Below, one piece after another: positions 2,772 through 62,021 of a DNA stretch of 64,000 nt. How positions within the stretch are numbered: the stretch's first letter is position 1; each line of letters begins with the position of its first letter. The stretch is from contig JAJYLC010000001.1 in assembly GCA_021787935.1 (NCBI GenBank), positions 4,598-68,597 of the forward strand, given 5' to 3'. This stretch comes from Chloroflexota bacterium (GTDB lineage Bacteria > Chloroflexota > Dehalococcoidia > SZUA-161). The translations under genes were made by a program, and so were the position numbers. The notes beneath the pieces were generated by a model, which was not told the DNA's origin, did not search any database, and worked only from the letters and a program-made list of their open reading frames with translations.

Positions 2772-2837
2772 TTAAGAGCCAAGGGTAATAAATTCAATAA
2801 AATTCGCGTTACGATGACAGTCAGTGGATATGAGAGC

Positions 2838-4803: not shown

Positions 4804-4804
4804 A

Positions 4805-6538: not shown

Positions 6539-6555
6539 CATAGAGTATGGGTAAT

Positions 6556-6954
6556 CTAATTACGGGCAACCGATTTTATTAACTCAATGAGATAATTTGT
6601 GTCTGTGCCAGCACCAAAGACCTCTTTAATGCCCTGTTTCTTTAGCCAGTCGATATCCTCATCAGGGATCAATCCTCCAACCAGAACCATTACATTCCCC
6701 AAACCCTTTTCTTTGAGCAAACGCATCACCACAGGGACATGGTCATCGTAAGCACCTGTTGAGAAACTCATGCCAATAACACTGGCATCCTCTTGCACGG
6801 CCGAAGTGGCTACTTCTTCAGGCCGCATGTATACTATATAAACTACTTCAAAGCCTGCGTCTCTCAAAATCGTGGCGACACTCTTCACTCCTCTATCATG
6901 GCACTCCATCCAATGCTTGACTAAAAGTACTTTAGTTCTGCCTTGGGATTTCAA
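6556..6954 (-). CDS. acyl-CoA mutase B12-binding small subunit (second copy)
   Basis: 132 aa; B12-binding domain with ExHxxG variant (ECHDRG); homologous to CDS 4396-4803. Confidence 0.8.
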   Translation of the reverse strand: MKSQGRTKVLLVKHWMECHDRGVKSVATILRDAGFEVVYIVYMRPEEVATSAVQEDASVIGMSFSTGAYDDHVPVVMRLLKEKGLGNVMVLVGGLIPDEDIDWLKKQGIKEVFGAGTDTNYLIELIKSVARN

Positions 6955-6992
6955 TTTATCTACCTCCCGGTTTAATTTGGGCTTGGCTCCGT

Positions 6993-8699: not shown

Positions 8700-8763
8700 T
8701 ACTATCCTCCTCGTTTCGTAGTATGATATTCATTCGTTTATGATTTAAGCTGCATCGCAATTA

Positions 8764-9555
8764 CTATTTCTTGTCCCTGGTTTCTCCTTTTAGAAAGCGG
8801 TCAAAGGCATTACTCATGAACTCTGTAGCGAATATTGAGGGCATCATTCGCTCAGCCTGCTGGTAATCGCACATAGCATTACGGTTGAGTACGCTTTTAA
8901 TGTAGGCTTTGGCCATGTAGCTGTTGGCGGCGATCCGCCTGGCTATCTCTTCGCATTTTGGAATCAACTGGTCGTCCTCGAAAACGTCCAGCACGATTCC
9001 TAGGCGTTTCGCTTCCTCTGGACTGAGTTCCACGGCTGACATACACAGATAGGCTATGACTTGCTTGCCAAGCTTCTCCAGTCCACGGGTCACCGCCCAA
9101 GCAGGCAGTGCACCGTGATTGATCTCCTTTAGAGCAAACTTAGCGCTTCTGGCAGCAAACGTCATATCACAAGCACCTGAAATCTCAAAGCCGAATCCGA
9201 AGGCTGCGCCGTTTACCGCGGCGATGACCGGAGTTTCGCTCAGCTCAATGGCCTTGAAAGGTTCGAAACATGCCTTGACGAAGTCGAATCCCGCTTCGGT
9301 CTTTCCAACCGTAGCGAATTGTTCGACATCCGCACCGGCGGAAAATACAGGGAAAGGGGTACCTTTCTTGGGATGAGTGAAGGTTTGTCCAGTTAGAATC
9401 ATGCAGCCGACATCTTTATCTCCATCAAGCTCCTGTACCGCAGCGGCCAATTCGCTAAAAATCTGCCTATTGGCGGCATTGAATTTGTCAGGACGGTTGA
9501 AAGTCATAATGGCAATGTTGCCCTTCTTCTCCACTTTCATTACCTCGTATTTCAT
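8764..9555 (-). CDS. enoyl-CoA hydratase/isomerase (crotonase family)
   Basis: 263 aa; crotonase-fold motifs (…FSAGADV…; N-terminal IAIMTFNRPDKFNA). Confidence 0.8.
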   Translation of the reverse strand: MKYEVMKVEKKGNIAIMTFNRPDKFNAANRQIFSELAAAVQELDGDKDVGCMILTGQTFTHPKKGTPFPVFSAGADVEQFATVGKTEAGFDFVKACFEPFKAIELSETPVIAAVNGAAFGFGFEISGACDMTFAARSAKFALKEINHGALPAWAVTRGLEKLGKQVIAYLCMSAVELSPEEAKRLGIVLDVFEDDQLIPKCEEIARRIAANSYMAKAYIKSVLNRNAMCDYQQAERMMPSIFATEFMSNAFDRFLKGETRDKK

Positions 9556-9597
9556 AGGCCTCCTTAGTGAAATAAATTAATTCAATAGAAGAGATTT

Positions 9598-11388
9598 TCA
9601 GGCGCTCTCCCATTCAGCCTGAATGATGGACGGGAGTTTGACAGCCCGTTCTTTCCCGCTCATGAAGTCAAGGTATCTGATGCCCTGCGGATCGATCTTC
9701 CTGATAAGTTCGAGTTCCTGCACTGTGGGTAATTTGGTAACTGGGCAATCAGAAGGTACTTCGACTTTGAATCCTGTATTATTGGCAACATCTTCTGCCT
9801 TAATACCCTTGTGCAGAGAGAGGGCTTTCCATTTGCCTCGCTCGACCATCTGCATGACACAGAGATTAGTCACCACAATCAGAGGACCAGGGCGCAGCCC
9901 CTGTGCCTTGCGTTCCTCGTCGGTAAAATAGTATCTCGTGCCCGTAATATAGTTAACCTTGGGTACAAATGTGTTTTTTGAGTGTCCGGCAAAATAGGCA
10001 ACTCCCTTTCGATGCAATCCGTAGACCACAGGTGCTCCGGCCCCTCCGGGAAGACGGATGGCGCGTGGGTTGATCTGGCCTGTTGGTTTGCCCTCTGCAT
10101 CTTTGACTGGCAGGGCTAGCCAGGAAATGTTGATGTCTCCGTTAGCATCCAGTTGCGCGCTGGAAACAGCTTCCACATCGCCCATACCTCTGAGGTGTAG
10201 TGCCTCAATGCATTCAGTCATAGACCAGAGTCCGGCCGCATACTCAGTGCACGCAGCCTCCGAGGAGTGGAAACTCAACTGGAATGGAAGAGGGTCAACA
10301 CCGCTATAACCAACGATGAAGGCATTGGGTGCGTGCGTCAGCTTGGCCAGCATGTATGCAGTGTACGCCAGTGGCGTGAACGAACCTAATATAATAGAAT
10401 CGCCATCTTCGATGGTGCGTGCCAGGCTGACCACCATCTGGTCCGCGGCATCAAACTCAAGTGCCGGTTCTTTGCTCACAGTAGAGGGAAATTCAATGTA
10501 CTTAGCATGTTTGGCCAGGCTGGAGAGTTTTCTTTTTGTTACATCCCCACCTACATTTCTTAGATACTCCTCCTCATTTTCACCAATGAGTTGCCGGATA
10601 TATTCTGGAGCCATTTTGGGGTCGCCAAGACCCTGGACATCTTTCATCATTTGCAACAGATGAGCGGAATAGTAAGGTACACAACTACAAGGAGCAGCAC
10701 CAAAGGGGCAATGGATTACCAGGTCCACTTCAGGTCTGAACAGCACGGTTGCCGTTTTATTTGTGCGAATTTGTTCTGGCGAGACAATCTCCTCCACGGT
10801 GACGATAACTGACCTGGCAGCCATTGCCATATCGAGGTCAGATGCTGACGTGCCGAAGATCTGTACATTGCCTTGCTCATCAGCCCTTTGTGCATGGATG
10901 ATCGCCACATCTGGTGATATAGCCTGTACGGCTGTAAGTTCTTTCCCGGTAAAAGGGCAAGTCACTGTTTTATATAGTTCAGGTGCTTCTTTGATGATAT
11001 CAGATCCCTTGGGCCCAGCGAATGCGGCAAAGGGCAGGCCTCTACCAGCGGCCTGTAGCCCCTTGACCATGCTGCAGCCCTCGATTTCGGTTAGTTTAAT
11101 CAATTTTCTCTCTGCGACTCTGCGGAAGTTGGGAGGCAATCCGAACGACTCCAGGCTCAAGAAGCTGAACACTAGATGGTCAACCGCACCGGCTGCCAAC
11201 AGCCATTCCATTTCCCATCCCCCAACGATAGACATCACTTTCAAACCAGTGATTTTCTGCCGGATGATTTCTCTGATGATTGCCATAGGCTTATTGCAGC
11301 TCCATCCACCCCCAATGCCCACAAAACTTCCATTTTTCACATATCCTTTGATGTCGCTCAATTTCCCCAGCTTGCTACGCAAAGTCAT
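9598..11388 (-). CDS. family I CoA-transferase, fused A/B subunits (glutaconate/3-oxoacid CoA-transferase-like)
   Basis: 596 aa. N-terminal KLSDIKGYVKNGSFVGIGGG resembles CoA-transferase subunit A. Length consistent with an A+B fusion. Confidence 0.6.
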   Translation of the reverse strand: MTLRSKLGKLSDIKGYVKNGSFVGIGGGWSCNKPMAIIREIIRQKITGLKVMSIVGGWEMEWLLAAGAVDHLVFSFLSLESFGLPPNFRRVAERKLIKLTEIEGCSMVKGLQAAGRGLPFAAFAGPKGSDIIKEAPELYKTVTCPFTGKELTAVQAISPDVAIIHAQRADEQGNVQIFGTSASDLDMAMAARSVIVTVEEIVSPEQIRTNKTATVLFRPEVDLVIHCPFGAAPCSCVPYYSAHLLQMMKDVQGLGDPKMAPEYIRQLIGENEEEYLRNVGGDVTKRKLSSLAKHAKYIEFPSTVSKEPALEFDAADQMVVSLARTIEDGDSIILGSFTPLAYTAYMLAKLTHAPNAFIVGYSGVDPLPFQLSFHSSEAACTEYAAGLWSMTECIEALHLRGMGDVEAVSSAQLDANGDINISWLALPVKDAEGKPTGQINPRAIRLPGGAGAPVVYGLHRKGVAYFAGHSKNTFVPKVNYITGTRYYFTDEERKAQGLRPGPLIVVTNLCVMQMVERGKWKALSLHKGIKAEDVANNTGFKVEVPSDCPVTKLPTVQELELIRKIDPQGIRYLDFMSGKERAVKLPSIIQAEWESA

Positions 11389-11480
11389 GTTTTGCCCTCT
11401 CTTATTTTGGATTCAGGGTGAGGTTCAGGGATATCGAAAATCGATACAAAAAGGTGCTATCATTCTAGGATTTGCGAGAC

Positions 11481-11518
11481 TGAATGTCAATCTTGAATGT
11501 ACTGAATGCTCTGAATTG
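11481..11518. promoter_or_regulatory. array of four TGAAT(G/T) direct repeats in a divergent intergenic region
   Basis: TGAATGT at 11481, TGAATGT at 11494, TGAATGC at 11503, TGAATTG at 11512 (spacing 13/9/9 bp). Lies between divergently transcribed CDS 9598-11388(-) and 11616-12605(+). Confidence 0.3.
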
Positions 11519-11615
11519 ACGAGTAATTGAGTGAGCTATATACTAATAACTACTTCTTAAGAGCTACAACGGTTCGTTTGGAGTAATCTAGAATTTAGAT
11601 AGAAAGAGAGTGAAT

Positions 11616-12605
11616 ATGGCCGAAAAGAAAAAGCGGTTTAGAGTACTCATCAGTGACCCTTTGCTTAAGGAGATGGTGAATGAGGCAAAGAAACAGTACC
11701 CGGAATACATTTCTAAGATAGATTTTGAGATTATGGAAAAAGCTGATGAACAGGAGCTTAGAGATAAGCTCCCTGGAGTTGATATTCTCATGTGCGCCAG
11801 GAGCAGGATAAACAGGAATGTGCTGGAGAAAGCGGATAAACTGTTTTTTATTCAGCAATGCAGTGCAGGATACGACAATATAGACCTCAAGGCAACAAGG
11901 GAGAAAGGTATCGATGTTTCAAATGCAGGTGGTGCCGGGGTTATTCCGGTGGCAGAGCATACGATAATGCTTATGCTGGCTATATCTAAGAACCTGATAA
12001 AGTCTGATAGAACCATGAAAGCGGGTGAATGGATATTCGGGGAGTGCGTTGGGAGGGTTTACGAACTGAGGGACAAGGTAGTGGGAATAATAGGACTGGG
12101 GAAAATCGGGGCTCAAGTAGCCCGGCTCGCCTATGCATTCGGTATGCGGATACAATACTACGATCCGTACCGAAAAGATACCAGCGACTTGGGCTTTCCT
12201 GCTAAAGCGGTATCATTGGAAGAATTACTGAAGACGTCAGACTACGTTAATATACATACTTTGTTGACACCTGAAACAAGGAGTCTCATCGGGCGAAAAC
12301 AACTGGAAATGATGAAGCCTACAGCATATTTAATAAATACCTCCAGAGGTGCTGTGGTTGATGAAGAGGCGTTGGCGGATATATTGCAGGCCAAGAAGAT
12401 AAGGGGGGCTGGGATAGATGTTTACGGAGAGCATGGTGACCCACCCCCAAAGAACAGCAGGTTGCTGAAGCAAGACAATGTGGTGCTAACGCCCCATATT
12501 GGTGGAGTTACCGCCGAGGACCTTTATCGTAACTTCTACGTTTCATCTTTGGGCAATGTTATCGCCGTGATCAAAGGGGAGAAGCCCAAATGGGTTATAA
12601 ATTAA
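11616..12605 (+). CDS. D-isomer-specific 2-hydroxyacid dehydrogenase (NAD-binding)
   Basis: Track ORF from GTG 11610; the ATG at 11616 is preferred. GLGKIGAQVARLA Rossmann motif and D-2-hydroxyacid dehydrogenase catalytic-domain similarity. Confidence 0.8.
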   Translation: MAEKKKRFRVLISDPLLKEMVNEAKKQYPEYISKIDFEIMEKADEQELRDKLPGVDILMCARSRINRNVLEKADKLFFIQQCSAGYDNIDLKATREKGIDVSNAGGAGVIPVAEHTIMLMLAISKNLIKSDRTMKAGEWIFGECVGRVYELRDKVVGIIGLGKIGAQVARLAYAFGMRIQYYDPYRKDTSDLGFPAKAVSLEELLKTSDYVNIHTLLTPETRSLIGRKQLEMMKPTAYLINTSRGAVVDEEALADILQAKKIRGAGIDVYGEHGDPPPKNSRLLKQDNVVLTPHIGGVTAEDLYRNFYVSSLGNVIAVIKGEKPKWVIN

Positions 12606-12707
12606 AAAGACTCCTGTATTCCTGACCTGGAAATAAACTCGTATATGGTGATGCAATTTATATCAGCAATTAAATGTAATTAGATATATGCAATATAGGA
12701 GGAAAGA

Positions 12708-14360
12708 ATGCTACAGACGAAAAAAGGTGACACACTCGGAACAATACTGGACCGAGTGACCGCAAAGTATCCCAAGAACGAGGCTATGATCCATGGCAGC
12801 GCAAGGATAACCTATGACACGTACATGGATAAGGTGAACTCGATAGCCAACGCCTTGCTGAAGCTGAGCGTGAAGAAGGATGACAAAGTATCCATCTGGA
12901 TGAGCAATAAGCCTGAGTGGGTCTACGCTCATTTCGCGGCAGTGAAAATAGGTGCGCCTGTCATACCGCTAAGCACTCGATACAAGACGCATGAACTCGA
13001 ATATATTCTCAAGAAGTCTGATACTACTACCCTCTTCATGATGGAACGTTTTCTAAAACTGGACTATATTCCTATGATTTACGAGCTATGTCCAGAACTT
13101 AAGACATGCAAGCCCGGAGACCTGCGAAGCGAAAGATTCCCGCTACTTAAGCGGATTATCATATTGAGTGAAAAAAGCTATGACGGAATGCTGGATTATT
13201 ACAAGGTACTGGAGTCTGGAAAGGATTATTTGAACAGCGCTGCATTGAAAAAAGCCCAACAGGCCATCAAGCCCGAGGATGTCTACATAATCCCATTTAC
13301 CTCGGGTACGACTGGTTTCCCCAAAGGAGTGGTTACCACCCATTCCCAGTATATAGGAGTCATAGAAGGCTTCAGTGAAAGATTCCAGATGACTGATAAG
13401 GATCGCATTCTGGTTGTATCCCCATTCAATAATAACATGGGTAATATGACCGGTCTTACGCTGGGAGCACTACACGGGGCCTGCATTCTACCTATGGAAA
13501 GCTTCGATCCAGGAGAGGCTCTGAGGCTGATAGATGAGGAAAAGGCTACGAACTTCACAGGCGCTCCAACGATGTATATTATGATGCTCGATCACCCTGA
13601 CTTCCCCAAGCGAAATACTAAGTCTATAAAAAGTGCCATAATCGGCGGAGCCGATGTTTCTCCCGATTTGGTAAAGACTATTATCGAAAAGATGGGCATA
13701 AAAGACATGATAGCCGGCTATGGCATGACCGAAAACACCGGTATCAGCACCTGTACAAGGCGAGGAGACCCGCCCGAGTTGGTCGCAAATACTGCTGGCA
13801 AGCTCATGTTCAAAGGTTGTGATCTAAGGATTTTCGATCCTGATACTGATAAAGAAGTACCCCGGGGCACCCAGGGTGAGATTCGTACAAAGGGCTGGTT
13901 TGTAATGAAAGAGTATTACAAGATGCCCGAAGAAACTGCAAAAGCCTTTGATAAGAGCGGCTGGTTCCACACCGGCGACCTGGGCGTGATGGATGAAAAG
14001 GGATATATAAAGATCACCGGCCGTTTGAAAGATATGTATATTTCAGGCGGTGTAAACGCATATCCTGCGGAGATAGAGAGCTTCCTTTATACACACCCAA
14101 AGGTGGCAATGGTTGCCGTATTTGGTGTGCCAGATAGGAGGATGGGTGAGGTAGGCGCAGCCTTCATAAAATTGAAGGATGGCCAAACTGCAACAGAGGA
14201 AGAGATTATAGCGTTTTCTAAAGAAAGGTTGGCCAATTACAAAGTCCCCAAGTATATAAAATTTGTAAAAGATTTTCCCATGACCCTTACAGGAAAGGTT
14301 CAGAAGTTTGTGCTAAAAGAACAAATCGTGAAGGAATTGGCGCTGGATAAGCAGCAATAA
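12708..14360 (+). CDS. AMP-dependent acyl-CoA synthetase/ligase
   Basis: 550 aa; AMP-binding motifs (PFTSGTTGFPKGV; YGMTE; GWFHTGDLG…ITGRLKD). Confidence 0.85.
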   Translation: MLQTKKGDTLGTILDRVTAKYPKNEAMIHGSARITYDTYMDKVNSIANALLKLSVKKDDKVSIWMSNKPEWVYAHFAAVKIGAPVIPLSTRYKTHELEYILKKSDTTTLFMMERFLKLDYIPMIYELCPELKTCKPGDLRSERFPLLKRIIILSEKSYDGMLDYYKVLESGKDYLNSAALKKAQQAIKPEDVYIIPFTSGTTGFPKGVVTTHSQYIGVIEGFSERFQMTDKDRILVVSPFNNNMGNMTGLTLGALHGACILPMESFDPGEALRLIDEEKATNFTGAPTMYIMMLDHPDFPKRNTKSIKSAIIGGADVSPDLVKTIIEKMGIKDMIAGYGMTENTGISTCTRRGDPPELVANTAGKLMFKGCDLRIFDPDTDKEVPRGTQGEIRTKGWFVMKEYYKMPEETAKAFDKSGWFHTGDLGVMDEKGYIKITGRLKDMYISGGVNAYPAEIESFLYTHPKVAMVAVFGVPDRRMGEVGAAFIKLKDGQTATEEEIIAFSKERLANYKVPKYIKFVKDFPMTLTGKVQKFVLKEQIVKELALDKQQ

Positions 14361-14528
14361 CTTCCGATTCTTGCTGAAATATGCTCAGTTCTGCGGCCAT
14401 TCAATGGAGAGCTGGGACTTTTGGAAATTGGCACCGCGGTACATTGTGCGTAGTTTTCAACTGAGTCTTTGTCGCAGGCTTATATCTGGATTTCGCATGA
14501 CTGGATAACAAAAAAGGGAGGGACAAGA

Positions 14529-15653
14529 GTGAATTTCAATCTAACTGAGCAGCAGGAGATGTTCCAGAAGTCAGTCAGGAGATTTGCTGAAGCTGAGTTA
14601 ACGCCGCTGATAGATGTGATGGACAAAGAGAATAGATATCCCTTCGAAATACGGCCGAAATTGGTTGCGATGAACCTCCTGGGGATCCCGTTCGACCCGA
14701 AATATGGCGGAGCCGGTGCGGACTATGCAAGCCTGGCTCTAGCTATGGAAGAGGTAGCGAAGGTATTGGCTCCCATGGCTATATCCATGCAAGTAGGAAA
14801 CGTCACTGCTGACAGATTCAATAAACTTGGCACCGAAGAACAGAAAAGAGAATTCATGATTCCGATCTGTGAAGGGAAGAGAGTCGTCTGCTTTGCATTC
14901 ACGGAGCCGGATACAGGCTCGAATCCCAAAATGATTAAAACAACGGCAAAATCGGCGGGCGATGGCTATGTAGTGAACGGCATTAAAAGATTCATCACGC
15001 ATGGGACGTTTGCTGACGCAGCATTAATCTTTGCTAAAGACGACGACGGAGACATCAGCCTATTCATAGTTGAAACGGATCGGAAGGGATTCTCTACTGA
15101 CAAGAAGATGGACAAATTGGGTCTGAGGGGAACGGAACTCTGCGACCTGATAATGAATGATGTTCATATACCTAAAAAGAATATTTTGGGAGGCAAAGGC
15201 AAGAAATTCGATGCTTTGAAGGATGCAATGACGATAGGCAAATTGTGTTTAAGTGCCCAGTGTGTTGGGCTAATGCAGGCTTCCCTGACAGAAGCCATTA
15301 GATACTCGGTGCATCGAATGCATTTCGACCATCCCATATTCGACCTGCAGGCTATTCACTGGCTACTTGCCGAGATGGCATCCAGACTGGAGGCAGCGCG
15401 CTGGCTCACTTACCGGGCTGCTTTCTTGAAAGACCAGGGTATGGACACCATAAAAGACATGGCAATGACCAAGTTATTTGTCACCTCAACGGCGGTAGAC
15501 GTGGTTAGATGGGGAATGCAAGTTCACGGCGCTTACGGTATTAGCAAAGAATATAAGATCGAGCGACTCTTTAGAGACGCTAAGATGTATGAGCTGCTTG
15601 AGGGCACTTCTGAGATACAACGGGAATTGATAGTTAAGCGTTTACCCAGGTAA
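14529..15653 (+). CDS. acyl-CoA dehydrogenase
   Basis: Track ORF starts at 14469. GGGAGGG RBS at 14514-14520 then GTG at 14529 gives VNFNLTEQQEMF…, the typical ACAD N-terminus. C-terminal …YEGTSEIQR… motif. Confidence 0.8.
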   Translation: MNFNLTEQQEMFQKSVRRFAEAELTPLIDVMDKENRYPFEIRPKLVAMNLLGIPFDPKYGGAGADYASLALAMEEVAKVLAPMAISMQVGNVTADRFNKLGTEEQKREFMIPICEGKRVVCFAFTEPDTGSNPKMIKTTAKSAGDGYVVNGIKRFITHGTFADAALIFAKDDDGDISLFIVETDRKGFSTDKKMDKLGLRGTELCDLIMNDVHIPKKNILGGKGKKFDALKDAMTIGKLCLSAQCVGLMQASLTEAIRYSVHRMHFDHPIFDLQAIHWLLAEMASRLEAARWLTYRAAFLKDQGMDTIKDMAMTKLFVTSTAVDVVRWGMQVHGAYGISKEYKIERLFRDAKMYELLEGTSEIQRELIVKRLPR

Positions 15654-15728
15654 CAAGTCTGTACGAGCAGCTTTGGGTCTACCACGGTAATGACATAGCG
15701 CTAACTGAACCGATGGGCCAGACAAAAC

Positions 15729-16946
15729 CTAGTCCACTTTAATTATGGCAGCATTGGCCTGGCCTAATCCTCCGCATATAGCACCCAAGGCATAGCCACC
15801 GCCTCTCCTCTGGAGCTCGTACATCAGGTTCATTATAATCCTGGCACCACTGGCTGTGTTGGGATGTCCTATAGCGATGGCACTTCCGTTAATATTTGTC
15901 CTGTCTCTTATATTTTGTAATTTCTTTTTGTCATCCCCAGCTATTAGCTTTGTAGAGACCAGAGGGACACAGGCGAAAGCTTCATTTATCTCCATAACAG
16001 ATAAATCATCAATACTCAGTTGGGCTTTCTTAAGCACACGCTGTATGGCATGGCCCGGCGCCTCAGCGATTCGGCTGGCTGAAATAGCAATCGATACTTG
16101 AGCAACCAGAGTTGCCAAAGGTGTAAGCCCGAGGTCTTCAGCCCGTCTCCGTGTCATCAAAAGAATTGCAGCAGCTCCGTCGTTCATCCCGGGAGCATTA
16201 CCGGCAGTGATAGCTCGAGTATTGTATATAGTCTTCAGCTTCGAGAGTCTCTCCAGGCTAGTATCAGACCGATATTGTTCATCAATGTTTAATAATTTAG
16301 ACACTCCACCCGGTTGCTGTATATTGAGCGATATTAACTCATCCTTAAATTTGCCGGCATTCCAGGCATCGCCATAGTTAACATGGCTTCGTAGAGCCCA
16401 TTCGTCCTGCTCACGTCTCTCTATTCCATACTCGGCGGCTACATTATCAGCATCAACAGCTACCGGATTAAAATCATTATAACCCAGCGCCTGCAGGGGG
16501 TCTTCCATCTTTACATCCCCTAGCCGATAGCCGCCGAATCGTAATCCTCTGACAATAAGAGGTTCCTGACTAAAAGAGGTGGCACCACCGGCAATGGCCA
16601 CATCGATTTCTCCCGAGGCAATGGTCATAGCAGCAAGTTTGACGGCATGCATTGCGGAAACACATGCCATGTCAAACGATATAGACGAAGTCTCATGAGG
16701 AAGTCCTGCCTTGATGAGCGACTGTCTGGCAGCAACAGGTGTGAAAGGGTCTTTACACGGCGACGTATCCCCTACCCCCCAGAAAACCCAGTCTACGGCA
16801 TCCGGGTTGATTTTAACTCGATTGAGCACCTCTTTGATCGGGATTGCCCCCAAGTCATAATAATCGAAGTCCTTGAGCATGCCACCGTATCTTCCAAAAG
16901 GTGTCCTGGCAGCACTGACTATAACTACATTATTTTCACCAGGCAC
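15729..16946 (-). CDS. acetyl-CoA C-acyltransferase (thiolase)
   Basis: 405 aa; thiolase N-terminal VIVSAARTPFGRYGG and C-terminal GLGQANAAII-like motifs. Confidence 0.85.
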   Translation of the reverse strand: MPGENNVVIVSAARTPFGRYGGMLKDFDYYDLGAIPIKEVLNRVKINPDAVDWVFWGVGDTSPCKDPFTPVAARQSLIKAGLPHETSSISFDMACVSAMHAVKLAAMTIASGEIDVAIAGGATSFSQEPLIVRGLRFGGYRLGDVKMEDPLQALGYNDFNPVAVDADNVAAEYGIERREQDEWALRSHVNYGDAWNAGKFKDELISLNIQQPGGVSKLLNIDEQYRSDTSLERLSKLKTIYNTRAITAGNAPGMNDGAAAILLMTRRRAEDLGLTPLATLVAQVSIAISASRIAEAPGHAIQRVLKKAQLSIDDLSVMEINEAFACVPLVSTKLIAGDDKKKLQNIRDRTNINGSAIAIGHPNTASGARIIMNLMYELQRRGGGYALGAICGGLGQANAAIIKVD

Positions 16947-17001
16947 TGTCTTACTCCGGTTGTTTAACTTCTTTTGAGAACAACCCTCACTTCAGTGATG
17001 A

Positions 17002-17862
17002 CTACGCAGAATAGCTGTAAAACCCTTTGCCGCTCTTTCTCCCCAGATGACCGGCTCGAACCATTTGTCGCAGCAGCAACGGCGGACGATATTTGGGATC
17101 GCTATACTCTCTGTACAGGTTTTCCATAACGTAAAGAAGTGTGTCCAATCCCACGAAATCCGCTAACTCCAAGGGGCCCATGGGGTGATTCATCCCCAGC
17201 CTCATGCTTTTATCGATATCCTCGGCGCTGGCTATGCCTTCAGCAAATGCATGAATCGCCTCATTCATCAGGACGGCAATAAATCTGCTGGTAGCAAAAC
17301 CCGGCGTGTCAGAAACGACTATCGGCGTTTTCCCCATCTTAACTGATAACTCTTCTATGGATTTAATGGTTTCCTCGCTAGTGCTGTATCCTCGAACTAT
17401 CTCCACTAGCTGCATCATAGGTACTGGGTTCATGAAATGCATGCCTATAAACCGGTCTGCTCTCTTGGTGGCGGATGCCATCTCAGTGATGCTCAGGCCC
17501 GAGGTGTTAGAGGCGAAAATAACGTGAGATGGACTCTCGTTGTCTATGGCTTTGAAGGTTTCTTTTTTGAGGGACAATATCTCTGGGATTGCCTCTATTA
17601 CGACATCAACATCTCTAACAGCTTCAATCAGCTTGTTTGTACATTTGATCCTTGACAGGGCAGTATCTGTGTCGGCTTGGGTAATCTTTCCCTTTTTAAC
17701 CATGCGCCCCAGGCTCTGCTTAACAGCAGCCATGCCTTTCTCAAGAAACTTATCCTCGATATCTCTCAACTTCACCTCGAGACCGGCTTGGGCTGCAACC
17801 TGGGCGATACCTGCACCCATAAGCCCTGCGCCCAACACACATACCTTACGTATTGCTGCCAT
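17002..17862 (-). CDS. 3-hydroxyacyl-CoA (3-hydroxybutyryl-CoA) dehydrogenase
   Basis: 286 aa; N-terminal VCVLGAGLMGAGIAQV Rossmann motif; HBD family. Confidence 0.85.
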   Translation of the reverse strand: MAAIRKVCVLGAGLMGAGIAQVAAQAGLEVKLRDIEDKFLEKGMAAVKQSLGRMVKKGKITQADTDTALSRIKCTNKLIEAVRDVDVVIEAIPEILSLKKETFKAIDNESPSHVIFASNTSGLSITEMASATKRADRFIGMHFMNPVPMMQLVEIVRGYSTSEETIKSIEELSVKMGKTPIVVSDTPGFATSRFIAVLMNEAIHAFAEGIASAEDIDKSMRLGMNHPMGPLELADFVGLDTLLYVMENLYREYSDPKYRPPLLLRQMVRAGHLGRKSGKGFYSYSA

Positions 17863-17962
17863 TATGCCCCTTTTGCCGGAATTATAGCAGCTTGAACGTG
17901 CGCCTGCAATTTCACATTCTCGTTATTCTCAGTAGCAGGTGAACAACAATCAATAGGATGTT

Positions 17963-18282: not shown

Positions 18283-18354
18283 GGCGACGTAGCCAAGTGG
18301 TAAGGCGGGGGTCTGCAAAACCCCTATTCAGCGGTTCGAATCCGCTCGTCGCCT
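18283..18354 (+). tRNA. tRNA-Cys (anticodon GCA)
   Basis: Acceptor GGCGACG/CGTCGCC; 3-bp D-stem typical of tRNA-Cys; anticodon stem GGGGT/ACCCC with loop CTGCAAA; T-arm AGCGG-TTCGAAT-CCGCT; no encoded CCA. Confidence 0.85.
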
Positions 18355-18356
18355 CT
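18313..18356 (+). repeat. 44-bp direct repeat copy 1 (3' half of tRNA-Cys from the anticodon loop to 2 nt past the gene; putative attL)
   Basis: ctgcaaaacccctattcagcggttcgaatccgctcgtcgcctct is identical to 22750-22793. Confidence 0.8.
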
Positions 18357-18730
18357 CACATAAGGCCCATCTTACCCAGTATCCCTTTGACATGTGTGAA
18401 GATAGACACATCTTCTTTCATATCCCACCAGATAAACTTGTCAAGCTCGTGTCCTATGAGGCGTGGTTGACCTCGTGCTTCGACCAAGCAGACTTTATGA
18501 AGGCTGGCATAACCTTTGAAGTCGCAATCTCGCAACCGCGTTATTTTGGTTGGACTCAATCCCAGTTCCTCAAACAACTCCCTGCCAGCGGCACTTGCAG
18601 CAGGTTCATTCTCTTTTATTCCCCCGCCGGGCAACGAGAAGCGACGCCTACCTCTGTCTCGAACAAGCAGAACCTTGCTATCTCTTATTACGACTGCAGT
18701 ACCCCGTTGGCGTAGGTGGCGATTATTCAT
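18356..18730 (-). CDS. NUDIX hydrolase
   Basis: 124 aa; Nudix box GGGIKENEPAASAAGRELFEELGL (GX5EX7REUXEEXGU pattern). Confidence 0.7.
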   Translation of the reverse strand: MNNRHLRQRGTAVVIRDSKVLLVRDRGRRRFSLPGGGIKENEPAASAAGRELFEELGLSPTKITRLRDCDFKGYASLHKVCLVEARGQPRLIGHELDKFIWWDMKEDVSIFTHVKGILGKMGLM

Positions 18731-18801
18731 ATGGGCACCTTGCGTTTGTTGCGGTATCCTACAGCAATATGTACCAACATTTGAGTTTATCCATAGAGGT
18801 T

Positions 18802-20073
18802 TTAGTTATTCCAGTTTCCGTCCCAAGTCGTATAAACATTGGTGACTGTTCCTAAGCTGTCCCATGTGCTGTCCCACCCCACTTCTGGGAATAAACTGTG
18901 GGGGATATACTGTTGCCCCACTTGGACATTGACTGTTTTTACACATCTTGTGGGGCCTGGTGAGTTAGTATCATCCACATAGACCAAACCCATATCGGTT
19001 GTTTGGAATGCGTCAAGGGCATGTCCACCAGTGTACCCAGACAAGTCGATTGAGACATAGGCACATCTGATTCCCGCCATCTCGGCGTCATTGTGAAGCC
19101 TTTCGGCAAAATCAGCACACACTTGAGGAGGGCTAGGCTGCTCTGTGCCATCAATAATACCTTGAATACGAGTCAGGTCAACATAGCTCTCAGCGGAACC
19201 GTAATATGACCCTGGTACCGACAGGCTGTAAGTGTATGGAAACTGGTCCGTTCTATCTTGTTGCAGGAAGCTCACCATCTGAGCATAGGTCGGATTGACA
19301 GCGTCCTTATTATTGATGAGCACGATGAAATGGCCGCTGTCATCGTAGCAACCATTACCAGAAAGCGTTCCTTCTGGTGTGTCTACCAGTCCTAGGTAGT
19401 AATTCTTGTATATGCCTGTTCGGCTGTTTATGCCTGCGCGTGTCTGACTTGGCGCTGGCGCAGTGGCTCTGGTTCCAGTCGAACTCGGGATGGGATTTGC
19501 CGACGACGATTGTTCTCCTTGGGAATTTCCGCCCTTATGGAACCATTCTACGACTGCATTCTTGGCTTCGTATAATGGACTCACCTTGGCGTAAGCTGCG
19601 ACTGAACATCCTATCAGGGCTACAAGGATCAGGGAGACGAATATGGTACCGTATCTTCTGACTTTATACTTTCGCACATCGCTAAACGTAATGATATCCC
19701 ATAGAGCAACAATCCCAGCTGCTGTCATAATTCCTATGACGACTGGTCGTGCAAGCTCAGGAATGTGATAGTACGTATATGCAATAATTCCTATAGCCGA
19801 AGCTGTTAGCAAGAGCAATATTAAAGATTGACTCCAACGGGACTGTCTCCGAGAGCGTAACTTACCCAGTGCAGAATTGATAGGCTTACTACGATGCTGA
19901 TGTACATGACCCGCTCCATAACTGGGTGTGGGAAAACTGTATTCACACCGGCCACACCGCCAAGAGCGATAGTGCCTATTATAGTAGACCTTAGTGCTTC
20001 CGCATCGTGGACATAATGGTGCGCCCCTTGATTCCTTCTGGGCTGCCCAATATTCGTCTTCTCTCTTAGGCAT
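18802..20073 (-). CDS. zinc-ribbon / 3-TM / transglutaminase-like cysteine-protease-domain membrane protein
   Basis: 423 aa. N-terminal CPRCG…CGRC ribbon and three hydrophobic helices. C-terminal VCADFA…AGIR…GHALDAF…VDDT matches the transglutaminase-like core (C…H…D with the GxCxxFA-like motif). Paralogous to CDS 20096-21643. Confidence 0.6.
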   Translation of the reverse strand: MPKREDEYWAAQKESRGAPLCPRCGSTKVYYNRHYRSWRCGRCEYSFPTPSYGAGHVHQHRSKPINSALGKLRSRRQSRWSQSLILLLLTASAIGIIAYTYYHIPELARPVVIGIMTAAGIVALWDIITFSDVRKYKVRRYGTIFVSLILVALIGCSVAAYAKVSPLYEAKNAVVEWFHKGGNSQGEQSSSANPIPSSTGTRATAPAPSQTRAGINSRTGIYKNYYLGLVDTPEGTLSGNGCYDDSGHFIVLINNKDAVNPTYAQMVSFLQQDRTDQFPYTYSLSVPGSYYGSAESYVDLTRIQGIIDGTEQPSPPQVCADFAERLHNDAEMAGIRCAYVSIDLSGYTGGHALDAFQTTDMGLVYVDDTNSPGPTRCVKTVNVQVGQQYIPHSLFPEVGWDSTWDSLGTVTNVYTTWDGNWNN

Positions 20074-20095
20074 AGGGTAACCACTTATTATTGTA

Positions 20096-21643
20096 TTACC
20101 AGTATATCTCCACAGTACTAACGATACCCAACGGCAAAACGGTCCAGTCTGTGGGCAAAATGAATTGAGGCGTATATTCTGTGCCTGGCTTCACTGACAC
20201 GGTTGTGTCGTTGTTTGAAGGTCCTGCCTGTCCTGGTGGTATTCCAGTGCAATCTATATATTTCAATCCTTCGTCTGTTGTAACGAAGGCATCCAGAGCA
20301 TGACCAATGGTCTGCCCTTGGAAAGTGACAAAGACGAATGCTGTCCTGATTCCCGCTGCCTCCGCATGGTCGTAGACATCCCTGGCGAAGTCAGCGCATG
20401 TGTACGTTGGCATGATGTATGGGTTGCTGTCTGTCTTATCCGCAAGTATGAAGCTTTCAAGTTGTGCCCAAGTTGGGTTCTGCGCCGCGGAATTCCTCGT
20501 CAGGGTTACAGATACGCCCGCCGCGTCAGTGACTGCGGGTTGTATCCCGGAGTATACCGTGATTCCCGTATCCTGATAGAGTTTGAGTTGTGTTTGAAGC
20601 TGATTGACTGTATTCTGCAAGGAAGTTATTTGGCTGTTTAGGCCGCTAATCTCTGATTTGGTGTTGTTCAAATCGGCTGTGGTTGTGCTCAGCTTGCCTT
20701 GTACTGTGACTAGCTCATTCTCCTTTGCCTGCACCTTGCTGTGGGAACTTTCAGAAACCCAAAACACGCTGACTAAGACCAGTAGAATTATAATGAAAGG
20801 GAATGCAATAGTTGCATAGCGAATTCTGAGATTACCGAATTTCAACAAGCCAATCATAGCAGCAGCGCTCCAGATTGCGGCGATTGAGGCGACTAAGATT
20901 AACCCAATAGCGGCATATCCAAGCCCGCTAAACTGAAAAGTTGCATAACCTATGAGTGCCAGGCACGCGAAGATTAGAATCAAGTAACGCGCATTTCTAC
21001 GAACAGCACTTACGTTCCTAAGTCTACCTGGGGCAACCATCATATTGCATAAAGAATTGAGGCATTCATAGCCAGATGTATTAGGGTTCCAATAGAGTGT
21101 ACCTTGCCCACAACCCGGACATATCTTCATTATTTGCCTTACAAAATGCCTCGGCTGTTCAAGTTGCACTTCAGGCGGCCGCTGTTGTTGTACTGCTATC
21201 TCACCCACTTCACTCTTTTGAAAATTACGTTTACACGCCGGATTGAAACACTCATGTAGTTTGACGAAGTGGTTCCAGTACAGCGACTTTTCACTGCAGG
21301 CAGGACACTGCCGCATCTCTGGCTCGTTGCGCTGGCTACCTAATTGCCTTTCGCGCAAAGCCATTTGTTCGCACCGGCAAGTGTCACACTCATATTTATA
21401 ATACTTGTGGTGCTTATAGCAGTATTTCACGCTATCACCAAAGGCACTGGCATATTCTTCTCGTGGTGCTCGCCCTTCCTCGGTTCTGTTCTCTTTCCAT
21501 ATGGGGCTCTGTTTGCACTTCGGATTTGTGCATTCTTTGGCCCTAGTGAATGGATTCCAGAAGAGGGACATTTCCCCACAGGCAGGGCACCGTTGAAACG
21601 CTGGGGTGTCCATCTGGCTATGCGAAGATTCGTCCTCTTTCAT
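20096..21643 (-). CDS. multi-zinc-ribbon / TM / coiled-coil / transglutaminase-like domain membrane protein
   Basis: 515 aa. Three CPxCG…C ribbons with the repeated module CPACSEKSLYWNHFVKLHECFNPACKRNF. Two hydrophobic stretches (~45 and ~21 aa) that could each hold one or two TM helices; the ~45-aa one is long enough for two. Q/N/L-rich coiled coil. C-terminal TCADFARD…AGIRTAFV…GHALDAFVTTDEGLKYIDCT (C-x31-H-x16-D). Confidence 0.6.
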   Translation of the reverse strand: MKEDESSHSQMDTPAFQRCPACGEMSLFWNPFTRAKECTNPKCKQSPIWKENRTEEGRAPREEYASAFGDSVKYCYKHHKYYKYECDTCRCEQMALRERQLGSQRNEPEMRQCPACSEKSLYWNHFVKLHECFNPACKRNFQKSEVGEIAVQQQRPPEVQLEQPRHFVRQIMKICPGCGQGTLYWNPNTSGYECLNSLCNMMVAPGRLRNVSAVRRNARYLILIFACLALIGYATFQFSGLGYAAIGLILVASIAAIWSAAAMIGLLKFGNLRIRYATIAFPFIIILLVLVSVFWVSESSHSKVQAKENELVTVQGKLSTTTADLNNTKSEISGLNSQITSLQNTVNQLQTQLKLYQDTGITVYSGIQPAVTDAAGVSVTLTRNSAAQNPTWAQLESFILADKTDSNPYIMPTYTCADFARDVYDHAEAAGIRTAFVFVTFQGQTIGHALDAFVTTDEGLKYIDCTGIPPGQAGPSNNDTTVSVKPGTEYTPQFILPTDWTVLPLGIVSTVEIYW

Positions 21644-21714
21644 CAGCGTTACCTCCTCTAGCGGCTGCTTTTCTAACGGAAATTACTCGGCTAGCCTGCT
21701 GATAATAAATTCAC

Positions 21715-22446
21715 CTACTTGGGTAAGTTGCCTACTTGCTTTGAGTCATTGTCAGGCGGAAGCTGTTGCCCTATTCTTGCAGCTAATTCGCTTCTCGTAA
21801 AATTGAGTCTGCACCTTGGGTTAAAGCATTCATATACTTTTGTAAAATGATTCCATTGTAGCGATGGTTTTTCACAAACGGGGCATTGTCGCAGATCCCT
21901 GGCTTTCTGCACCTTATCCGCAGACTCTTGACGCAGAGTCTGTTGTTCCAGGCGGCATTTATCACACTCAGTGTTGTAGTATGTCTTATGCTTGTAGCAG
22001 TACATGGGTGTCTCTACCTGGGCAGCCCTTGGTCGCTCCTCTGACCTTTGAGGTCGGCTAGTAGATAAGTTTGTGAAGTTGGTAGCTATGAAAGTTGGTG
22101 AAGTCGATTTCGCCATGAGCTTGCGGCTGAGGTATCGGTTGGGAGAAACATACCTTACACGGTACTTGCCAAGCGGAATAATGGGTATGAATATCAGGCA
22201 GAAGTACTTGGTCTGTACGATAGAGGAACATACGGGGCAGCGTAACCCTCCACCGTATAACCTTGTTCCGATTCCGTTGAGGGTTGTGGTTGAGCCTGCG
22301 CTCTCAGCAGTGGTAGCATCTGCACATTTTTGGCAGAATCCGGGAAAATGCCGGAAGTTTTGACATTCCTTGGAACAATAGACACCGAGTTCATCCCGGG
22401 GGCCCCAGACAACGCGAGATCCGCAATTGCTACATTTTTCAAACAT
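21715..22446 (-). CDS. multi-zinc-ribbon protein (paralog of the N-terminal regions of 20096-21643; no TM or TGase-like domain)
   Basis: 243 aa. Modules YCYKHKTYYNTECDKCRLEQQ and CPVCEKPSLQWNHFTKVYECFNPRCRLNF are near-identical in pattern to YCYKHHKYYKYECDTCRCEQ / CPACSEKSLYWNHFVKLHECFNPACKRNF in the neighbouring protein. Confidence 0.5.
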   Translation of the reverse strand: MFEKCSNCGSRVVWGPRDELGVYCSKECQNFRHFPGFCQKCADATTAESAGSTTTLNGIGTRLYGGGLRCPVCSSIVQTKYFCLIFIPIIPLGKYRVRYVSPNRYLSRKLMAKSTSPTFIATNFTNLSTSRPQRSEERPRAAQVETPMYCYKHKTYYNTECDKCRLEQQTLRQESADKVQKARDLRQCPVCEKPSLQWNHFTKVYECFNPRCRLNFTRSELAARIGQQLPPDNDSKQVGNLPK

Positions 22447-22749
22447 GCTCAGACCTCCCTCAAGGATGCATCACTTGAGACATTCTACAGCGACATGGCA
22501 TAGAGTGCAAGATGACTCGCTATGACTTACTGTATCTGCTTATCACCCATCTTCTTGCACCCTGACTTCGTCAAGCGCCTGGCTGCCCCATACAAGCTCA
22601 GGCCAACGGAGATGCTGGGTAGGAACCTCTGAGGCCTGGTTACAGCTAACGGACAGCTAACCGTTTCAGCGGTTGCAAGCGGTGTTTTGCGGTTGTCAGA
22701 GGTGTGTTTTAGCTTCGGGTATGCCTGCAGGCGAGTGTGAAACGCGTTA

Positions 22750-22793
22750 CTGCAAAACCCCTATTCAGCGGTTCGAATCCGCTCGTCGCCTCT
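22750..22793 (+). repeat. 44-bp direct repeat copy 2 (partial tRNA-Cys 3' half; putative attR)
   Basis: Identical to 18313-18356. Not preceded by the 5' half of a tRNA, so it is not a complete gene. Confidence 0.8.
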
Positions 22794-22830: not shown

Positions 22831-24318
22831 TTATCTTGATATGCCCAGGTATCCGCTGTACCGGACTACGTGGGAGAGCGCCCTAGCCGCCCTCTCGGGA
22901 GTGGGGTACGGGATAAGATGGTTCTGTTCCATCAAGCTGTACACTTCTCCCTGCTTCACAATCCCGATGCCCATAGAACAGAAGATTACAGGCTTATCAT
23001 ACCTGCCCATCATTTCTTTCACTCTGTTCAATTCCACCAGGTCTTTACTCTCCATCAGCTTTCCCATTTCGTCCAGATTAGTGACCCAGGGAGCATGCAG
23101 TGAAAACCACCCGACGAAGCTGCGTGTTGCCGCAGGAGAACCTATTACCAGCACGACATCTACGTTCTCGTCCTCTATCAGCGGCCAGAGACAGTCATAG
23201 TTGAAACGGTCGCCGCCAATGTCGACAGGGTTCCCGTGTGACCAACGACGTGACAGGACTGAGTTCAGCTTATCAATTGTTGCAGGCGACAGCGGAGGCA
23301 GTTCCAGACCATGCCTTGCTACTGTATCCGCGGTCATAACAGCCATACCTCCACCTATCGAGAGCACCCCCACCCGCTTTCCTTTGGGCAGCGGCTGTCC
23401 CAATAGAAGCAGCGCAACGTCAATCAGCTCGCCAATTTCTTCCACCCTGATGACCCCGGCCTGCTTGAACGCCGCATCGCTGACTATGTCCGAACCTGCC
23501 AGAGCAGCAGTATGAGACCGCGCTGCTTTAGCGCCAGCCTGCGTTCCACCTGCCTTCACTACAACAATAGGTTTCTTTTTGGTAATCTCCCTTGCCAGCT
23601 CTAAAAAGCGGCGGCCTTCCCTGAGACCCTCGATGTAGCCGAGAATGACCTTGATTTCGTCATCCTGTGCCAGATACTCGAGGTAGTCCTCAAAATGCAG
23701 AGCAGCCTCGTTCCCGCTGCTGACGTATTTGCTGAATCCCAGGCCGCTTTCCAGGCCCGAGATAATAATCGATTGACCGGAGTTCCCGCTCTGAGATATG
23801 AGCCCCACCGGCCCTCTCCTCAACGGCGGCAGAAAAATGACGGTATTGAAGTTAGAGTAAGTATCGAAAAGCCCCATGCAGTTTGGCCCTACGAACGGTA
23901 TGCCCCCGCGCTTCGCGACCTCGACTATCTGCGCCTGGACCTTCGCACCTTCTTCGCCTGTCTCGGCAAGCCCTCCTGAGATAACCACCACCCCTTTTAC
24001 CTGCTTCCGGATGCAGTCCTCCATAGCTGACGGGACATCCTTAAATGGCACCGTAATGACCGCTAAATCTACAGGACCAGGCACGTCCAATATGCTCGGA
24101 TAAGCCTTCAACCCGAGCACTTCAGCCTCTCTATTATTCACAGCGTATATGTCTCTGCTTTTGTCGCCTAACAGCAGGGCAAGAATATTAAAGCCCCACT
24201 TGCCCAGCGTATTGGACGCACCGATCAAGGCTACTGAACGCGGATTGAACATGCTGTCCAACTGCTCTTTAAATGTCATTTCTCCGTATCCTGAATATAA
24301 TTTTTCCTGAACGTTCAT
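22831..24318 (-). CDS. NDP-forming acyl-CoA synthetase alpha subunit-like (CoA-binding + CoA-ligase domains)
   Basis: 495 aa; FNPRSVALIGAS…GPNCMGL…GPVGLISQSGN… succinyl-CoA-synthetase-alpha-like motifs. Confidence 0.75.
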   Translation of the reverse strand: MNVQEKLYSGYGEMTFKEQLDSMFNPRSVALIGASNTLGKWGFNILALLLGDKSRDIYAVNNREAEVLGLKAYPSILDVPGPVDLAVITVPFKDVPSAMEDCIRKQVKGVVVISGGLAETGEEGAKVQAQIVEVAKRGGIPFVGPNCMGLFDTYSNFNTVIFLPPLRRGPVGLISQSGNSGQSIIISGLESGLGFSKYVSSGNEAALHFEDYLEYLAQDDEIKVILGYIEGLREGRRFLELAREITKKKPIVVVKAGGTQAGAKAARSHTAALAGSDIVSDAAFKQAGVIRVEEIGELIDVALLLLGQPLPKGKRVGVLSIGGGMAVMTADTVARHGLELPPLSPATIDKLNSVLSRRWSHGNPVDIGGDRFNYDCLWPLIEDENVDVVLVIGSPAATRSFVGWFSLHAPWVTNLDEMGKLMESKDLVELNRVKEMMGRYDKPVIFCSMGIGIVKQGEVYSLMEQNHLIPYPTPERAARALSHVVRYSGYLGISR

Positions 24319-27337: not shown

Positions 27338-27718
27338 ATGGCACAGAATATTAAATGCCCCCGCTGCGGCAGATATACAGCCGATGCAACTTACTGTCAG
27401 TATTGCGGCAAGGCTTTACATGCTTGTCCAGTCTGTGGCGCCAGGATATCCCGAAACGCCATATTCTGTCCTGAGTGCGGAGCACCTATCTCTAAGGACC
27501 AAAGAGATATAGTAGCCACAGAGCGCACCTCATGGGCCTGGTGGATACTTCCCCTGCTATTAGGCTGGATAGGCGGCGTCATTGCCTGGGCTATGAACCG
27601 ATACAGAGATCCCGCTAAAGCTAGCTATATGCTCTGGTTTGGGGTATCGTTGACCGTGATAGAGATCATCATCACCATAGTGGTAGACGTGACACAACAT
27701 GGTCACACCGCACCTTAA
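27338..27718 (+). CDS. double zinc-ribbon domain membrane protein
   Basis: 126 aa; CPRCG…CQYCG and CPVCG…CPECG ribbons followed by two TM helices. Confidence 0.6.
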   Translation: MAQNIKCPRCGRYTADATYCQYCGKALHACPVCGARISRNAIFCPECGAPISKDQRDIVATERTSWAWWILPLLLGWIGGVIAWAMNRYRDPAKASYMLWFGVSLTVIEIIITIVVDVTQHGHTAP

Positions 27719-62013: not shown

Positions 62014-62021
62014 AGCAACCC

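Follow-up and report, generated by a model that had tools for sequence, protein, structure and literature searches.

An islet of 4.4 kb, bounded by two copies of the 3' half of a tRNA-Cys(GCA) gene, lies in the genome of a Chloroflexota bacterium of the class Dehalococcoidia (GTDB lineage SZUA-161; assembly GCA_021787935.1, contig JAJYLC010000001.1, positions 4,598 to 68,597). The whole 64-kb stretch that was analysed is called the window. Coordinates are those of the window, and L-numbers denote loci or contigs fetched for comparison. The islet carries four genes, and together with its edges it comprises the following features.

18283-18355, plus strand: tRNA-Cys(GCA), the presumed integration target, which would be attB-derived with its 3' part as the attL core; called by ARAGORN and Rfam (tRNA, 69 bits); orthologous tRNA clusters in L005, L006 and L121.
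18313-18356, plus strand: putative attL core, the 44-bp identity block; exact repeat; Islander class 'A' (anticodon-centred crossover).
18356-18730, minus strand: NUDIX hydrolase, 124 amino acids, last gene of the operon; PF00293, E 4.9e-13; complete Nudix box GGIKENEPAASAAGRELFEELG from residue 36.
18802-20073, minus strand: 423-amino-acid membrane protein with an N-terminal zinc ribbon, three hydrophobic segments and a predicted C-terminal papain/transglutaminase-like domain (Cys319, His351, Asp367).
20096-21643, minus strand: 515-amino-acid membrane protein with zinc ribbons, three hydrophobic segments, a coiled coil and a predicted C-terminal papain/transglutaminase-like domain (Cys416, His448, Asp464).
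21715-22446, minus strand: 243-amino-acid zinc-ribbon protein without the protease-like domain, first gene of the operon; orthologs with 63-70% identity lead the same operon in L151 and L144.
22482-22510, minus strand: candidate operon promoter TTGCAC-N17-TAGAAT; in L151, L144 and L057, the homologous operons are preceded by a conserved TAGAAT(/C) box with conserved neighbouring bases.
22750-22793, plus strand: putative attR core, a displaced 3' fragment of tRNA-Cys; exact repeat; the right flank TCTTTTTACAGCCAG matches the L005 flank after tRNA-Cys.
22831-24318, minus strand: ACD, an ADP-forming acyl-CoA synthetase-like gene and the native neighbour of tRNA-Cys, outside the islet; Pfam CoA_binding and Succ_CoA_lig; adjoins tRNA-Cys in L005 and L006.

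The exact 44-bp duplication reported in a first-pass annotation of the bare sequence was recovered with a repeat finder. Positions 18313-18356 and 22750-22793 are identical at 44 of 44 positions and lie on the same strand. The bases that flank the two copies differ (T and A on the left, C and T on the right), and the repeat is exactly 44 bp long. A repeat of this kind cannot have arisen by chance. Its first base is that of the anticodon loop, as had been stated, and it ends 1 nt beyond tRNA-Cys rather than the 2 nt given at first. The distance between the two copies is 4,393 bp, and the islet measures 4,437 bp with one repeat counted (18357-22793). The tRNA-Cys gene is intact and closes a Trp-Leu-Gly-Cys tRNA cluster. 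At the 22750 copy, no tRNA is called by ARAGORN or Rfam. This copy does lack a tRNA 5' half, as was claimed from the start, and the sequence on its left is dissimilar to any tRNA 5' half. At the other end of the islet, the stop codon of the NUDIX gene overlaps the attL core by one base.

Relatives of the locus were found via the flanking ACD gene, with one genome per species scanned, and this led to metagenome-assembled genomes (MAGs) of Dehalococcoidia. In L005 (ACD with 83% amino acid identity) and L006 (77%), the same tRNA cluster is followed directly by ACD, about 40-170 bp from tRNA-Cys. These are empty sites, with the very arrangement that had been predicted for relatives that lack the islet. 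The bases after the tRNA in L005 (CTTTTTTGCAGCCAG) correspond to those after attR in the window. Neither a second tRNA-Cys nor any of the four islet genes occurs in any of six related loci. The first-pass annotation had held that relatives with the same four genes and a complete second tRNA would speak against an att duplication; no such relative is present among the six.

The same spot holds other DNA in other relatives. The closest one, L003 (MAG W92_261), is 91-93% identical to the window at the nucleotide level on both flanks and carries a different insert of 1.47 kb that encodes a DUF169 protein. This insert is bordered by a 23-nt block of tRNA-Cys, from the T-arm to the 3' end, and by a 17-nt remnant. 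L121 (ACD with 84.5% amino acid identity) has 0.95 kb of unrelated DNA at this position, and two CoA-transferase genes lie at the integration site in L004 and L007. In L007, a frameshifted tyrosine-integrase stump adjoins tRNA-Cys (last 58 residues, 64-76% identical to the L110 integrase described below). The tRNA ends in ...GCCTCT in the window and the empty sites and in ...GCCTCCA in L003, L007 and L121, as if the 3' end in the latter three had been replaced by element-borne sequence. Judged from these alleles, the tRNA-Cys locus is a multi-allelic integration hot spot. Similarity between the L003 insert and the islet outside the core was considered and rejected, with only chance-level 9-12-mers (E >= 0.36). 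L003 also contains a chimeric tRNA at 7075-7145, next to the DUF169 insert, in which the 5' part of a tRNA-Gly(GCC) continues, from the T-arm on, as the 3' end of a tRNA-Cys; the 5' half of tRNA-Cys and the 3' end of tRNA-Gly are missing. This could be a real 77-nt deletion between two T-loops, which would have destroyed two tRNA genes, or an artefact of the MAG.

These comparisons show that the islet is an insertion. We consider it likely that 18357-22793 entered the 3' end of tRNA-Cys(GCA) through site-specific recombination by a tyrosine integrase, and that it is now an integrase-less islet resembling a cis-mobilizable element (CIME). The repeat, the intact tRNA and the empty sites all support the att footprint that had been read from the sequence at first. 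Tyrosine-integrase islands are typically recognised by this pattern, in which integration restores the tRNA gene used as target and a displaced fragment of it stays behind (PMC4383910). The crossover would have taken place inside the 44-bp sequence common to the attP of the element and the tRNA gene. Integration would have regenerated the intact tRNA at attL and left the displaced 3' fragment by the native flank at attR. The recombinase would be of a family with an N-terminal arm-DNA-binding domain, whose att cores are flanked by (A/T)GCTAAC repeats. The islet would have kept the P arm on the attR side and would be without the tRNA-proximal P' arm and the integrase. Either the integrase end would have been deleted, or the islet would have been inserted by an integrase supplied from elsewhere, and present mobility would be possible only with an integrase supplied in trans. 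The predicted empty attB junction is ...AAGGCGGGGGT followed by the 44-mer and TCTTTTTACAGCCAG, and the predicted circular attP junction is ...GAGTGTGAAACGCGTTA followed by the 44-mer and CACATAAGGCCCATC. The islet is classed as an integrase-less, CIME-like derivative, presumably of a family of integrative elements specific for tRNA-Cys, because it has no integrase and no tRNA-proximal arm, and because the NUDIX stop codon abuts the core.

The claim that the islet has no integrase, excisionase or transposase is borne out by several searches. Pfam, PHROGs and PADLOC scans found none among the four islet proteins, with no match to PF00589, and no integrase was seen when all open reading frame (ORF) translations of the window were read by eye. 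In tblastn searches, five tRNA-Cys-linked integrases had no match in the whole window, islet included, and an integrase remnant within the islet was rejected on this result.

Tyrosine integrases are found beside the same core in other DNA. Exact copies of the 43-nt tRNA-Cys 3' half number 82 in JGI metagenomes and 0 in viral contigs. About 12 of the 82 are orphan fragments without a 5' half, and several others adjoin tyrosine integrases. In L110, where the tRNA 3' half is identical to that of the window, the stop codon of an integrase lies 60 bp from the end of tRNA-Cys. This protein matches PF00589 Phage_integrase (E 2.8e-26), SAM_3 and Arm-DNA-bind_4. Its relatives are encoded in L139 (86% identity over 125 aligned C-terminal residues) and L075 (65% over 71), and L087 contains only the last 26 residues of such an integrase. 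L110 and L139 have intact integrases by the identical tRNA-Cys 3' half, and L075, L134, L116 and L132 have related ones. The recombinase of the islet was probably of the family seen in L110, L139 and L075 and as the stump in L007.

A second group of loci uses the core as well. Orphan 43-nt copies in nine loci (L062, L084, L093, L099, L104, L108, L124, L133 and L137) are preceded by a conserved high-GC arm (GACGAACCTCTACGGACGTCTCTGGGCGAA), and the integrases of L084 and L104 are about 36% identical to that of L110. These loci look like a second, unrelated element family with an identical core in other phyla.

Three further features lie between the promoter and the attR core.

22642-22661, plus strand: tandem ACAGCTAAC repeats with an 11-nt period, candidate arm-type integrase sites (P arm); the motif recurs by integrases in other loci.
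22669-22708, plus strand: another tandem repeat (2 x 20 nt; GCGGTTGCAAGCGGTGTTTT / GCGGTTGTCAGAGGTGTGTT), which lies right of the AGCTAAC repeats and left of the attR core.
22631-22740, no strand assigned: non-coding element of about 110 nt, conserved in L144 (1129-1240, about 73% identity) and situated between the promoter and the attR core.

In the window, the tandem repeat reads ACAGCTAACGGACAGCTAACCG at 22642-22663, 88 nt left of the attR core. Tandem (A/T)GCTAAC repeats with the same 11-nt period lie between the 3' end of the integrase and the tRNA in L110, L087, L139 and L007, 49-80 nt from the core. L140, which holds an orphan tRNA-Cys fragment, has TTGCTAACGGATTTGCTAACC about 110-130 nt left of the core; the orphan cores of the window and L140 thus both have tandem repeats about 90-130 nt upstream. 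L003 has a single ACAGCTAACGG, 6 nt from the attL core, and this motif, shared by L003 and the islet, gained meaning because it also appeared beside integrases. The exact tandem AGCTAAC-N4-AGCTAAC is found at three independent places in 1.26 Mb of fetched non-viral loci. A search of viral contigs with GTTAGCT-N4-GTTAGCT gave >120 matches, about the chance level for that collection, and was uninformative. From their placement, the AGCTAAC repeats are probably arm-type integrase sites, present on both arms of the element family. The 2 x 20 nt repeat and the 10-mer TTCAGCGGTT, which occurs at 22665 and is part of the core at 22764, could be extra sites for the recombinase or an accessory factor. 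The conserved element of about 110 nt was also considered as an RNA and rejected, with z about 0 on both strands and no Rfam match.

Several observations weigh against this account of the islet. The arm-site role of the repeats is assigned by position alone. The repeats and about 110 nt around them also occur upstream of the homologous operon in L144, with no tRNA core nearby, and the AGCTAAC repeats could instead be an operator of the operon. Loss of the integrase would require a deletion that ended exactly at the edge of the core, which would be a coincidence. An integrase of the proposed family was not found within the 64-kb window of this genome. As for recent mobility, the comparison set is without a same-species relative, the closest being L003 at about 91-93% nucleotide identity. 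The GC content of the islet (48.3%, against 49.9% for the window) does not differ from that of its flanks and was rejected as an island signal. Here, the comparison of composition that the first-pass annotation had proposed gave a divided answer, since GC does not deviate but codon usage does: the four islet genes rank 3rd-7th lowest of 55 for fit to the codon usage of the window. In tetranucleotide distance, too, the islet comes out as the most extreme of 120 windows of equal size. Both deviations speak for the insertion and suggest that the islet is of foreign origin and came from a donor of similar composition.

The mechanism proposed for the islet is ordinary, and integrase-less islands have already been described, in Dehalococcoides included. 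The anticodon-centred attachment class comprises 2,083 islands in the Islander database (PMC4383910). Like the tRNA islands recorded there (PMC4383910; sublocation classes of Williams 2002), the islet has an intact tRNA, a displaced direct 3' fragment and a class A identity block, is absent from relatives and lies at a locus used by several different inserts. It departs from them only in having no integrase, and at 4.4 kb it is very small. Fifteen Dehalococcoides islands at ssrA without integration modules were interpreted as cis-mobilizable elements (McMurdie et al. 2011, PMC3146451). The islet shares with CIMEs, these islands of the same bacterial class among them, the presence of attL and attR, the lack of integration and transfer genes, and an att site that is also used by integrase-bearing elements. 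The Dehalococcoides islands differ in that their target is ssrA and their enzyme the serine recombinase DsiB, whereas the islet has tRNA-Cys as its target, a presumed tyrosine recombinase and a single copy instead of a tandem array. The related elements resemble lambda-type attP, with short tandem repeats 50-130 bp from the core on both arms and cognate integrases that carry an arm-DNA-binding domain. The islet keeps one candidate arm of this kind.

A less likely alternative, although one to be taken seriously, is that the islet never had an integrase. It would then be a cassette-like cis-mobilizable element that is still mobile: an integrase-bearing tRNA-Cys element, settled elsewhere in the genome or only passing through, would act on it in trans or form a tandem with it by accretion. 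Neither core shows any damage, candidate integrase sites survive on one arm, and the operon has its own candidate promoter. The left boundary is the natural end of a complete NUDIX gene, with no truncated gene. In addition, a Logan contig from another run (L002; SRR13170411) ends after the first 30 nt of the attR copy, which is usual for repeated sequence. Such a break fits repeat or alternative junctions, but an assembler with k=31 would break at this position regardless. On the other hand, no circular junction was seen, nor an empty site from the same species, a search of viral contigs gave no hit to the att 43-mer, and the four proteins are all singletons at 90% identity, with the islet seen in one genome only. 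Also missing is the tRNA-proximal arm, where all integrase-bearing relatives have the repeats.

The join of two unrelated metagenome contigs through a shared 44-mer is very improbable. The source is indeed a MAG, and many taxa share an identical tRNA-Cys 3' half, as the 82 metagenomic loci attest. For such an artefact, however, both junctions would have to be false together, both flanks are syntenic with L003, and an independent k141 assembly (L001; ENA ERZ27233565) reproduces the structure and differs at 1 position in 21.5 kb, the 44-bp repeat being shorter than k=141. The poorest explanation of all, a decayed tandem tRNA-Cys gene (a pseudogene or segmental duplication) with the four genes ancestral to the locus, may draw on the clustering of tRNA genes here and on the frequency of partial tRNA genes in prokaryote genomes (PMC9897764), but it fails because none of the six related loci has a second tRNA-Cys or the islet genes here and two have clean empty sites, and it also sits badly with a fragment that is 100% identical where a decaying pseudogene should diverge, has no similarity to the tRNA 5' half on its left and has the native flank of the tRNA on its right.

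We thus retain insertion by a tyrosine integrase for the islet and turn to its cargo. The four ORFs between the repeats share the minus strand and are spaced 22-71 bp apart, and their arrangement is that of one operon with its own candidate promoter. This promoter scored below the threshold of the consensus scan and was picked by position and conservation. The first-pass annotation had described a NUDIX hydrolase and three paralogous multi-zinc-ribbon proteins. The NUDIX assignment stands, and the 124-amino-acid protein agrees with the Nudix box pattern GX5EX7REUXEEXGU. The 423- and 515-amino-acid proteins are full-length paralogs (E 4e-30). The paralogy does not extend to the 243-amino-acid protein, which has only a zinc-ribbon module in common with the 515-amino-acid protein (48% over 90 amino acids) and no significant similarity to the 423-amino-acid protein. 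The 515-amino-acid protein has three zinc ribbons of the form CPxC...WN...EC..xC and, in addition, one CxxC pair. Cytoplasmic zinc ribbons followed by three transmembrane segments would probably put the C-terminal domain outside the cell.

The NUDIX protein has >304 homologs, many of them 75-82% identical. This small NUDIX is unusually conserved, with 75-82% identity across dozens of 90%-identity clusters. Its homologs (P0024-P0142) are mostly on contigs <2 kb, as if these contigs reflected repeated or hypervariable regions that assemble poorly.

The C-terminal domain of the 423- and 515-amino-acid proteins has no Pfam family. A match to PF01841 (transglutaminase-like), a check suggested earlier for these proteins, was not obtained for either at E<=0.1, and two relatives have only weak matches to PF15644 (Gln_amidase). 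The domain profile gave only noise against PDB sequences, and for P0147 only the lectin half was matched there. A word-indexed search with the 515-amino-acid protein returned 20 relatives only. An exhaustive search with the domain profile yielded 2,963 cluster representatives, counted at 50% identity, of which 881 scored E <= 1e-30. The 20 close and 142 distant members compared have an invariant Cys, His and Asp. In the predicted structure, a helix begins at the Cys, and neighbouring strands hold the His and the Asp.

Fold comparison put the fungal lectins MOA and PSL first with their papain-like protease domains (9.6-9.7), followed by protein-glutaminase (6.4), LapG (6.0) and TglA (5.7), with transglutaminases and PNGase after them. 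A viral fold library gave marginal matches only, to transglutaminase and 'agglutinin C-terminal'. As modelled, the domain has a papain/transglutaminase-like fold with Cys-His-Asp in canonical order and positions, and from this we infer that the membrane proteins may be proteases. MOA is an unusual Ca2+-dependent protease of the papain superfamily (PMC4764322, PMC8244254). The protease domain of MOA and PSL1a (PDB 2iho, 3phz) is the closest in fold to the islet domain but has no detectable sequence similarity to it. Compared with these lectins, the islet domain has Asp as its invariant third residue and is membrane-tethered behind zinc ribbons and a stalk. It is likewise similar in fold to LapG, protein-glutaminase and TglA, of the PF01841 clan, without matching PF01841 itself. 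Within the family, the domain is nearly always C-terminal and lies behind membrane anchors. Other domains found in members are ricin-B lectin (the MOA architecture), 2H phosphoesterase, DnaJ, CAP and zf-AN1, and most members have no Pfam domain.

The operon is a unit that recurs elsewhere. In L151, which is overlapped by L150, a 227-amino-acid protein with 63% identity to the 243-amino-acid protein is followed by a 549-amino-acid family member and then by a NUDIX gene (77%). In L144, a 511-amino-acid protein, which over its first 228 residues shares 70% identity with the 243-amino-acid protein, is followed by a 498-amino-acid member. One member (L054) lies beside tRNA-SeC and another (L052) beside tRNA-Lys, and no direct repeats of neighbouring tRNAs were found around the homologs in L052, L053 and L054. 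A 371-amino-acid protein without a Pfam match adjoins arrays of zinc-ribbon/protease-domain genes in unrelated contigs (L143 2449-3564 and L144 4808-5923) and may be a further component of the system. A double-zinc-ribbon (DZR) membrane protein is encoded in the window at 27338-27718 on the plus strand, 4.5 kb from the islet, and its homolog in L052 (11684-12382), which is fused to a bacterial PH domain, adjoins a protease-domain gene. This link may be coincidental, zinc-ribbon membrane proteins being abundant in these genomes.

The company that the NUDIX and membrane protein genes keep in other genomes hints at a chemistry of NAD- or ADP-ribose-derived nucleotides and at a role in conflict. 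It is conceivable, though we hold it doubtful, that the cargo is an anti-phage conflict system of this type, in which the NUDIX protein would process a nucleotide signal and the membrane protease-like proteins would act as sensor or effector. In L057/L056, a 615-amino-acid member of the zinc-ribbon/protease-domain family is followed by a NUDIX gene, then by genes for a TIR protein and a 2H phosphoesterase. The series NUDIX-TIR-2H recurs without the membrane protein in L147-L149, and the NUDIX orthologs are 77% identical. The member in L052 adjoins Macro and deacetylase genes, and fusions of the 2H phosphoesterase to the protease-like domain exist (P0165, P0206). Furthermore, the islet sits in a hypervariable integration hot spot. 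The islet itself, however, is without TIR and 2H genes, the 2H fusions are rare (2 of 128 representatives), and the partners found in the large domain family (2,963) are many and unrelated, among them DnaJ, CAP, ricin-B lectin and coiled coils. LapG-like processing of cell-envelope or surface proteins fits the fold equally well. No component of a known defence system was matched in PADLOC-DB 2.0, where only the NUDIX protein hit the candidate PDC-S07, weakly (E 1.1e-5), next to coiled-coil noise; this hit counts slightly in favour of a conflict role. PHROGs gave nothing beyond NUDIX and coiled-coil noise, and the TIR genes of the other loci match TIR domains only and no described defence system. 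An even bolder combination strikes us as unlikely: the islet would be a still-functional integrase-less cassette that is moved in trans via its AGCTAAC sites, and its operon would be the core of an undescribed membrane conflict or signalling system, completed elsewhere by TIR and 2H proteins that act on NAD/ADP-ribose-derived nucleotides.

Two observations concern the rest of the window. The islet is embedded in a block of acyl-CoA metabolism genes (1-17900 and 22831-24318), which encode CoA-transferases, a methylmalonyl-CoA mutase-like protein, enoyl-CoA hydratase, acyl-CoA synthetase and dehydrogenase, thiolase, 3-hydroxyacyl-CoA dehydrogenase and ACD. An archaellum-like cluster is located at 58791-63788 on the minus strand of this bacterial genome. 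It encodes FlaJ-like (504 amino acids), FlaI-like (585 amino acids; T2SSE, E 3e-40), FlaH-like (242 amino acids; KaiC, E 3e-20), FlaF-like (177 amino acids) and archaeal-flagellin-like (171 amino acids) proteins. Since archaella in Chloroflexota have recently been reported (PMC12488501), this cluster is a further example and not a new finding.

The mobile elements of Dehalococcoidia have mostly been studied at ssrA. The locus described here adds a tRNA-Cys hot spot and a candidate family of integrases and arm sites for uncultured members of the class. The cargo is the more useful lead. Its domain family numbers about 3,000 representatives, has no Pfam model and is found again and again with a small NUDIX of high conservation, in some cases also with TIR and 2H genes. 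If the link with NUDIX is functional, this would be a new accessory system in Chloroflexota.

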